The notes under the pieces are model-generated. The model worked only from the letters and a program-made list of their open reading frames with translations, ran no database searches and was not told the origin of the DNA. This document shows, one piece after another, positions 27,879 through 28,235 of a stretch of DNA of 64,000 bases. The stretch is from the NCBI RefSeq assembly GCF_003334815.1, contig NZ_QOWO01000014.1; one strand, written 5' to 3'. Every line of letters begins with the position of its first letter. Position 1 is the first letter of the stretch. This DNA comes from Escherichia coli. Its GTDB lineage: Bacteria > Pseudomonadota > Gammaproteobacteria > Enterobacterales > Enterobacteriaceae. The position numbers were made by a program, and so were the translations under genes.

Positions 27879-28044
27879 TGTTCTCTTCTTCAGGTTAAAA
27901 AATAAGGCGCAACGAAGATAACAAACCGCCGCGTTTAATGAAATGAGCAGCCTCTCCCTGACGCAAATTTTGCACAAAAAATAGGCTTTAGTGATTTGTT
28001 TTTGTTCAAAATCATGCCAAATCCGTGATCGGGGTAAAAAAAGG

Positions 28045-28072
28045 TTGCATGAAAACGCGAGCGGAGTATAGT
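28045..28072 (+). promoter_or_regulatory. Sigma70-type promoter for the initiator tRNA gene
   Basis: TTGCAT (28045..28050), 16-bp spacer, TATAGT (28067..28072), then GC-rich discriminator GCGC and an upstream A-tract; tRNA begins about 14 nt downstream. Confidence 0.5.
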
Positions 28073-28085
28073 GCGCATCCACGGA

Positions 28086-28162
28086 CGCGGGGTGGAGCAG
28101 CCTGGTAGCTCGTCGGGCTCATAACCCGAAGGTCGTCGGTTCAAATCCGGCCCCCGCAACCA
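28086..28162 (+). tRNA. metZ: Initiator tRNA-fMet (fMet1 type, anticodon CAT), single copy
   Basis: CGCGGGGTGGAGCAGCCTGGTAGCTCGTCGGGCTCATAACCCGAAGGTCGTCGGTTCAAATCCGGCCCCCGCAACCA: C1-A72 mismatch, three G-C pairs in anticodon stem, encoded CCA. Confidence 0.95.
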
Positions 28163-28170
28163 ATTATTGA

Positions 28171-28192
28171 ACACCCTAACGGGTGTTTTTTT
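28171..28192 (+). terminator. Rho-independent terminator after tRNA-fMet
   Basis: acaccc-taac-gggtgt hairpin followed by TTTTTTT. Confidence 0.65.
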
Positions 28193-28235
28193 GTTTCTGG
28201 TCTCCCATAAAAAAGCGCCATTCAGCGCCTTTTTA

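Follow-up and report, generated by a model that had tools for sequence, protein, structure and literature searches.

Gene content and signals of the locus

The window analysed here, a 64-kb stretch of Escherichia coli DNA, carries a single initiator tRNA gene in the 357-bp interval between mltA and amiC. The features of this region are as follows.

26781..27878 (−): mltA, the left flank; its translation is identical to K-12 MltA and it occupies the same position as in K-12
28036..28042 (+): A7 run, which is A8 in K-12 and in the assembly GCA_001749285.1
28045..28072 (+): metZWV promoter region, with hexamers assigned by eye; the region is identical to K-12
28084..28164 (+): 81-nt unit (GA + tRNA + AT), present as three perfect copies in K-12; an 81-nt BLAST piece at 100% identity
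28086..28162 (+): initiator tRNA-fMet gene of the fMet1 type with an encoded CCA, from ARAGORN, Rfam and identity to K-12
28169..28196 (+): intrinsic terminator of the operon (after metV in K-12), with an 8-pair stem, a 4-nt loop and a T run, identical to K-12
28236..29489 (−): amiC, the right flank; its translation is identical to K-12 AmiC

The sole tRNA that ARAGORN detects across the 64 kb is a plus-strand tRNA-Met (28086..28162; anticodon CAT), and the Rfam tRNA model matches 28086..28159 with 61.4 bits against a gathering score of 29. Both confirm the lone tRNA-fMet reported in the initial annotation. The 77 nt of this gene are 100% identical to K-12 metZ, metW and metV. Reading the sequence as a cloverleaf, C1 lies opposite A72, an A precedes the final CCA (…GCAACCA) and the anticodon arm, TCGGGCTCATAACCCGA, places GGG/CCC (G29–31:C39–41) on either side of the CAU loop. 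Three G:C pairs in the anticodon stem are important in the initiator tRNA, and G46 or A46 separates fMet1 from the K-12 metY isoform; the identity to metZ, metW and metV makes the window gene an fMet1 (G46) rather than a metY (A46) type. Given complete identity to a characterised K-12 gene, its product is expected to be formylated and used in initiation.

The promoter hexamers recognized by eye are a −35 element TTGCAT (28045–28050) and a −10 element TATAGT (28067–28072), separated by a 16-nt spacer and followed by a G+C-rich stretch. A consensus promoter scan upstream of the tRNA returned no site within its thresholds, and we assign the promoter because of identity to K-12 and the published mapping. 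Indeed, the 90 nt upstream of the tRNA are those of the K-12 metZWV promoter region minus one A in the A run, and Kapoor et al. mapped that promoter experimentally, with promoter-down mutations at or beside the −10. The initial annotation had given the gene its own promoter and terminator, and both hold: the terminator as a terminator-like hairpin at 28169..28196 and the promoter by the K-12 match and the published mapping, the scan being negative. The locus thus has the position of the metZWV operon between mltA and amiC, with one promoter upstream and one terminator downstream. The A7 run lies 3 nt upstream of the −35 element and 43 nt upstream of the tRNA start.

Further RNA genes of the window lie at their K-12 positions: CsrB at 4856–5215 (−), GcvB at 23396–23601 (+) and OmrA/OmrB at 56581–56864 (−). 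There is also an Rfam match to ES036 (CssrF) at 26617–26659 (−), between tcdA and mltA, with 46.5 bits (gathering score 37.6).

Comparison with K-12 MG1655 and the closest relatives

In K-12 MG1655, metZ, metW and metV stand in tandem between mltA and amiC as 77-nt genes with 33-nt spacers and a period of 110; the tandem of identical copies that the initial annotation ascribed to K-12 is present there, with three members. The window has one gene and no spacer in place of this array. Exactly 220 bp, or two 110-bp units, are missing without a scar, and three copies would lengthen the mltA–amiC interval by the same 220 bp. The upstream flank of metZ and the downstream flank of metV are both retained, the two K-12 spacers, ATTAAAATTTGATGAAGTAAAGCAGTACGGTGA and ATCAAATTTGATGAAGTAAAAGCAGTACGGTGA, are both missing, and a search of the window for remnants of repeats or spacers found none. 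The 81 nt comprising GA, the tRNA and AT are identical in all three K-12 copies; between copies 2 and 3 the shared stretch extends to 94 nt. The difference from K-12 therefore has the anatomy of a tandem-repeat contraction: loss of whole units (220 = 2 × 110), endpoints within 81 nt of perfect homology and no filler.

Across all 64 kb, what separates the window from MG1655 is 14 substitutions, the 220-bp deletion and one 1-nt indel; the window contains zero Ns. The indel is the A7 run itself, A7 versus A8 being the sole 1-nt length difference in the window; the other 14 of the 15 homopolymer runs of at least 7 nt have the same length as in K-12. The window is therefore cleanly assembled and comes from a phylogroup-A strain that closely resembles K-12 without being K-12. 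A platform-wide homopolymer error, of the long-read-only or 454 type, is unsupported with only 1 of 15 such runs differing, although errors as sparse as roughly one in 64 kb may be present. The substitutions that alter proteins relative to K-12 are:

29943: ArgA A75T
35575: RecB E303G (a C7 run becomes C8 through the substitution)
43451: YgdB C62S
52190 and 52575: Tas A39T and Y167C
60217: LysR I240V
60582: YgeA C178Y

All seven of these amino-acid changes are present in GCA_001749285.1 and are therefore lineage variants. This assembly (contig MIWQ01000003.1, 547 kb) was located by an exact-sequence look-up of the ArgA A75T variant and is the closest that we found. Across window positions 19942–41052 (21 kb) it shows 0 substitutions and differs solely by having A8 and three tRNA copies with K-12 spacers. 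Elsewhere it carries the window alleles at 43451, 52190, 52575, 60217, 60582 and 60874. The single synonymous substitution in amiC, at 29082, is also common to the two and is absent from K-12 and from six sampled relatives with an A7 run. A C-to-T substitution at 50069, located 72 nt upstream of the start codon of mutH, is private to the window, GCA_001749285.1 retaining the K-12 base there; the window therefore represents a distinct sister isolate. The known private changes of the window (one transition, one homopolymer shortened by one and one tandem-repeat loss) all lie outside coding sequence. They bring to mind the spectrum of mismatch-repair deficiency, although so few changes (n = 3) allow no more than a passing idea.

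Among 5,170 complete genomes that match a query with the 90-nt upstream sequence, 19 have exactly the A7 version, and these 19 do not all belong to a single lineage. We looked at six of the 19, and each is annotated with three tRNA-Met genes. In two of the six, the third tRNA-fMet copy (2811–2887 of the locus extract) carries a point mutation, C17T in NMBU-W10C18 and G23A in T16R; these copies may be variant genes, possibly impaired, or consensus errors. No complete genome combines A7 with one copy, and no RefSeq complete genome matches the window locus exactly. Since the sister isolate has three copies, the single-copy state of the window is private and recent.

Copy number across complete genomes

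Copy number at this locus was surveyed in 5,426 RefSeq complete E. coli genomes using short, junction-specific queries.

At least 3 copies (spacer–tRNA–spacer unit present): 5,003 of 5,426 (92.2%)
At least 4 copies (a subset of the preceding class): at least 6 (about 0.1%)
Exactly 2 copies (5,195 with a tRNA–spacer–tRNA junction, minus 5,003): 192 of 5,426 (3.5%)
Exactly 1 copy (the window's arrangement in one piece): 213 of 5,426 (3.9%)
None or disrupted (by difference): 18 of 5,426 (0.3%)

The count for four or more copies is a lower bound, as joined three-copy matches on the plus strand reach equal coverage. Longer queries of 1.5 kb and 24 kb were dropped: they gave inconsistent counts (226 and 251) because adjacent BLAST pieces get joined, and the short-query counts sum correctly. 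About 7.5% of finished E. coli genomes thus have fewer than three copies at metZWV. Four tandem copies are found in G3/10, DEC5A, SCPM-O-B-7615, FDAARGOS_946, WP4-W18-ESBL-09 and LAM_HS, the at least six complete genomes of that class; the array thus undergoes expansion in addition to contraction. That three copies predominate (92%), despite easy deletion and the lack of an easy return from one copy, would be consistent with purifying selection on dosage.

Reduced arrays are also found among laboratory strains. The assemblies of the K-12 derivatives J53, ME8067, C3026, MC1061, OV2 and MG1655p have one copy and those of DH5a, C600 and MT102 have two, whereas other assemblies named DH5alpha and MG1655 have three. 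Several one-copy genomes fall into groups: seven GF chicken-meat genomes (CP172145–CP172217), six within CP067245–CP067311, five WP wastewater genomes and five TUM genomes. This clustering by sequencing project, in raw counts that take no account of project sizes, hints at pipeline-specific collapse.

The locus also varies in other ways. In NZ_CP008697.1 (ST648) the match to the mltA flank ends 2 nt before the tRNA and there is one tRNA-fMet-like place genome-wide, a pattern that could reflect a rearrangement, an array lost altogether or an error in the assembly. Some strains carry island genes between the tRNA array and amiC, either for type VI secretion (TssF/G, VasL, Ros/MucR) or for a bgl-like PTS operon. 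In the island-bearing strains homology to the window restarts at 28149, within the 3′ end of the tRNA; an island downstream of metV is already known in the literature.

Origin and consequences of the single copy

Two explanations of the missing units were named in the initial annotation, recombination between tandem repeats in the strain and collapse of identical units during assembly. Both survive, and both are documented elsewhere at this array, the first in evolved K-12 and the second in O104:H4 and draft assemblies. The two 110-bp units are missing across identical repeats of 81 bp, and we consider it slightly more likely that the assembler lost them than that the cell did, giving collapse a probability of roughly one half. 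In such a collapse, reads from three identical tRNA copies would have been merged by the assembler into one path running from the promoter flank through the tRNA to the terminator flank. The two 33-nt spacers would have been dropped on the way, and the strain would truly carry three copies.

Four observations incline us slightly towards collapse: the private nature of the one-copy state, the co-located sole indel, the lack of any exact match among RefSeq complete genomes and the precedent of O104:H4. Regarding the first, the window has one copy and the near-identical GCA_001749285.1 has three, although the substitution at 50069 makes the latter a different isolate. Regarding the second, the A7 indel lies 43 nt from the tRNA, and a local consensus problem would account for two such neighbouring length changes more readily than two independent mutations would. 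On the other side, A7 exists as a true allele in 19 complete genomes, which counts against collapse.

Assemblies of the O104:H4 clone of the 2011 outbreak provide a direct view of misjudgement at the array. Two of them, 2011C-3493 and 2009EL-2050, have one copy and HUSEC2011 has two, whereas FDAARGOS_349, FDAARGOS_348 and at least 10 others of the clade show at least three; genomes of this clade named with at least three copies include FDAARGOS_401, FDAARGOS_403, FDAARGOS_772, C227-11, FWSEC0009, RM8376, 2009EL-2071 and 55989. Over 12 kb, the flanks compared within the clade are 100.0% identical. Variation of this kind is not expected in an outbreak clone sampled over weeks, and some finished O104:H4 assemblies are therefore wrong at the array. 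In addition, the draft GCA_005396265.1 has 75 Ns within an array tRNA and two Logan contigs terminate inside an array tRNA. In FDAARGOS_349 and FDAARGOS_348, of the O104:H4 clade, the second spacer measures 32 nt and not 33 nt, with tRNA starts at 727, 837 and 946; this spacer variant is specific to the lineage.

Several observations weigh against collapse. The window is otherwise clean: besides its 14 substitutions it has neither a further indel nor any N, and of its 15 homopolymer runs of at least 7 nt, 14 are unchanged. Its private substitution at 50069 implies that it had some evolutionary time of its own. The similar numbers of one-copy (213) and two-copy (192) genomes, together with rare arrays of at least four copies, fit real unequal exchange, and real 3→1 and 3→2 deletions arose in three of five evolved K-12 lines.

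The main rival is thus a recent, real deletion in the isolate, in which the first and third of the identical tRNA copies misaligned and two repeat units were lost; we regard it as a serious contender, if somewhat short of an even chance. Such a deletion could proceed by RecA-dependent unequal exchange or by RecA-independent template switching behind the fork. In favour of this reading, the loss is scarless and amounts to a whole number of repeat units, and its endpoints lie in 81 nt of perfect identity. The same events have been seen experimentally in the evolved K-12 lines, and loss and gain of ~100-bp tandem repeats independent of RecA is established in E. coli. The census (3.9% one-copy, 3.5% two-copy and existing arrays of at least four copies), the one or two copies of several K-12 laboratory derivatives, the clean assembly with its separate private substitution, and the advantage reported for fewer initiator genes in poor media all point in this direction. 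Against a real deletion, the one-copy state was not inherited, since three copies are present in the nearest relative and in six of six sampled A7 relatives; conflict among assemblies of one outbreak clone makes a single-copy call weak on its own; and a second length change lies only 43 nt away.

It is also conceivable, but quite unlikely, that both length changes are real and linked, with the reduction from three genes to one accompanied by the change from A8 to A7 at the sole promoter. If so, they would amount to a coupled retuning of initiator dosage, with a compensatory or a reinforcing effect, observed between two near-clonal isolates. Least credible of all, and rejected here, is an old deletion common to a clade that includes the window: one-copy genomes are fairly common (213/5,426) and many have a K-12-like flank haplotype, but the closest assembly found, with 0 substitutions in 21 kb, has three copies, as do all six sampled genomes with the rare A7, and A7 occurs with one copy in no complete genome.

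The initial annotation held that the true copy number matters for growth rate and initiation fidelity, which agrees with the literature. The level of tRNA-fMet tracks gene copy number, and this level influences how fast cells grow, how sensitive they are to cold and how faithfully start sites and initiators are selected. When metZWV is lost completely, ~25% of the initiator tRNA remains, growth is ~20% slower and cold sensitive, and initiation by non-initiator tRNAs and at non-AUG codons becomes possible. If the single copy is real and metY is intact, the strain would have two initiator genes rather than four and about half the initiator supply, and would be physiologically unlike a three-copy strain. 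Partial loss of initiator genes is reportedly costly in rich media and beneficial in poor media, a finding credited to Samhita et al. 2014. Given the conflict among O104:H4 assemblies, metZWV gene counts are unfit for inferring dosage or tRNA adaptation unless confirmed at the level of reads.

Copy-number variation at this array and its physiology have already been described, and a reduced array is a known, recurrent and ordinary state. What the present analysis adds is the census and a warning not to rely on the copy numbers that public assemblies show for this array; nothing else in it is new. Compared with metZWV of K-12, the window is identical in position, in the 77-nt tRNA and in the terminator, and its promoter region is identical bar one A; it differs in having one gene rather than three, neither 33-nt spacer, and A7 rather than A8. 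Finished one-copy genomes such as JEB8 (OZ001712), J53 (CP028702) and O104:H4 2011C-3493 (NC_018658) have the same layout of 40 nt, tRNA and 40 nt as the window, and in JEB8 and 2011C-3493 the single-copy state is confirmed by annotation, but none of them pairs A7 with one copy.

Two experimental systems offer parallels for a real deletion. In assays with 101-bp tetA repeats, RecA-independent template switching or replication slippage deletes and expands ~100-bp tandem repeats in E. coli. These assays were run on plasmids or engineered constructs, but they resemble the present case in their direct tandem repeats of ~80–100 bp, in the clean loss of whole units and in the occurrence of expansion too. 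The closer parallel is the laboratory evolution of genome-reduced K-12, where homologous recombination removed one or two of the three f-Met tRNA genes in three of the five lines (Front Microbiol 2023, PMC10249474). Those events were verified in defined laboratory lineages, whereas the putative event in the window is known from an assembled sequence; the structure of the product is the same in both.
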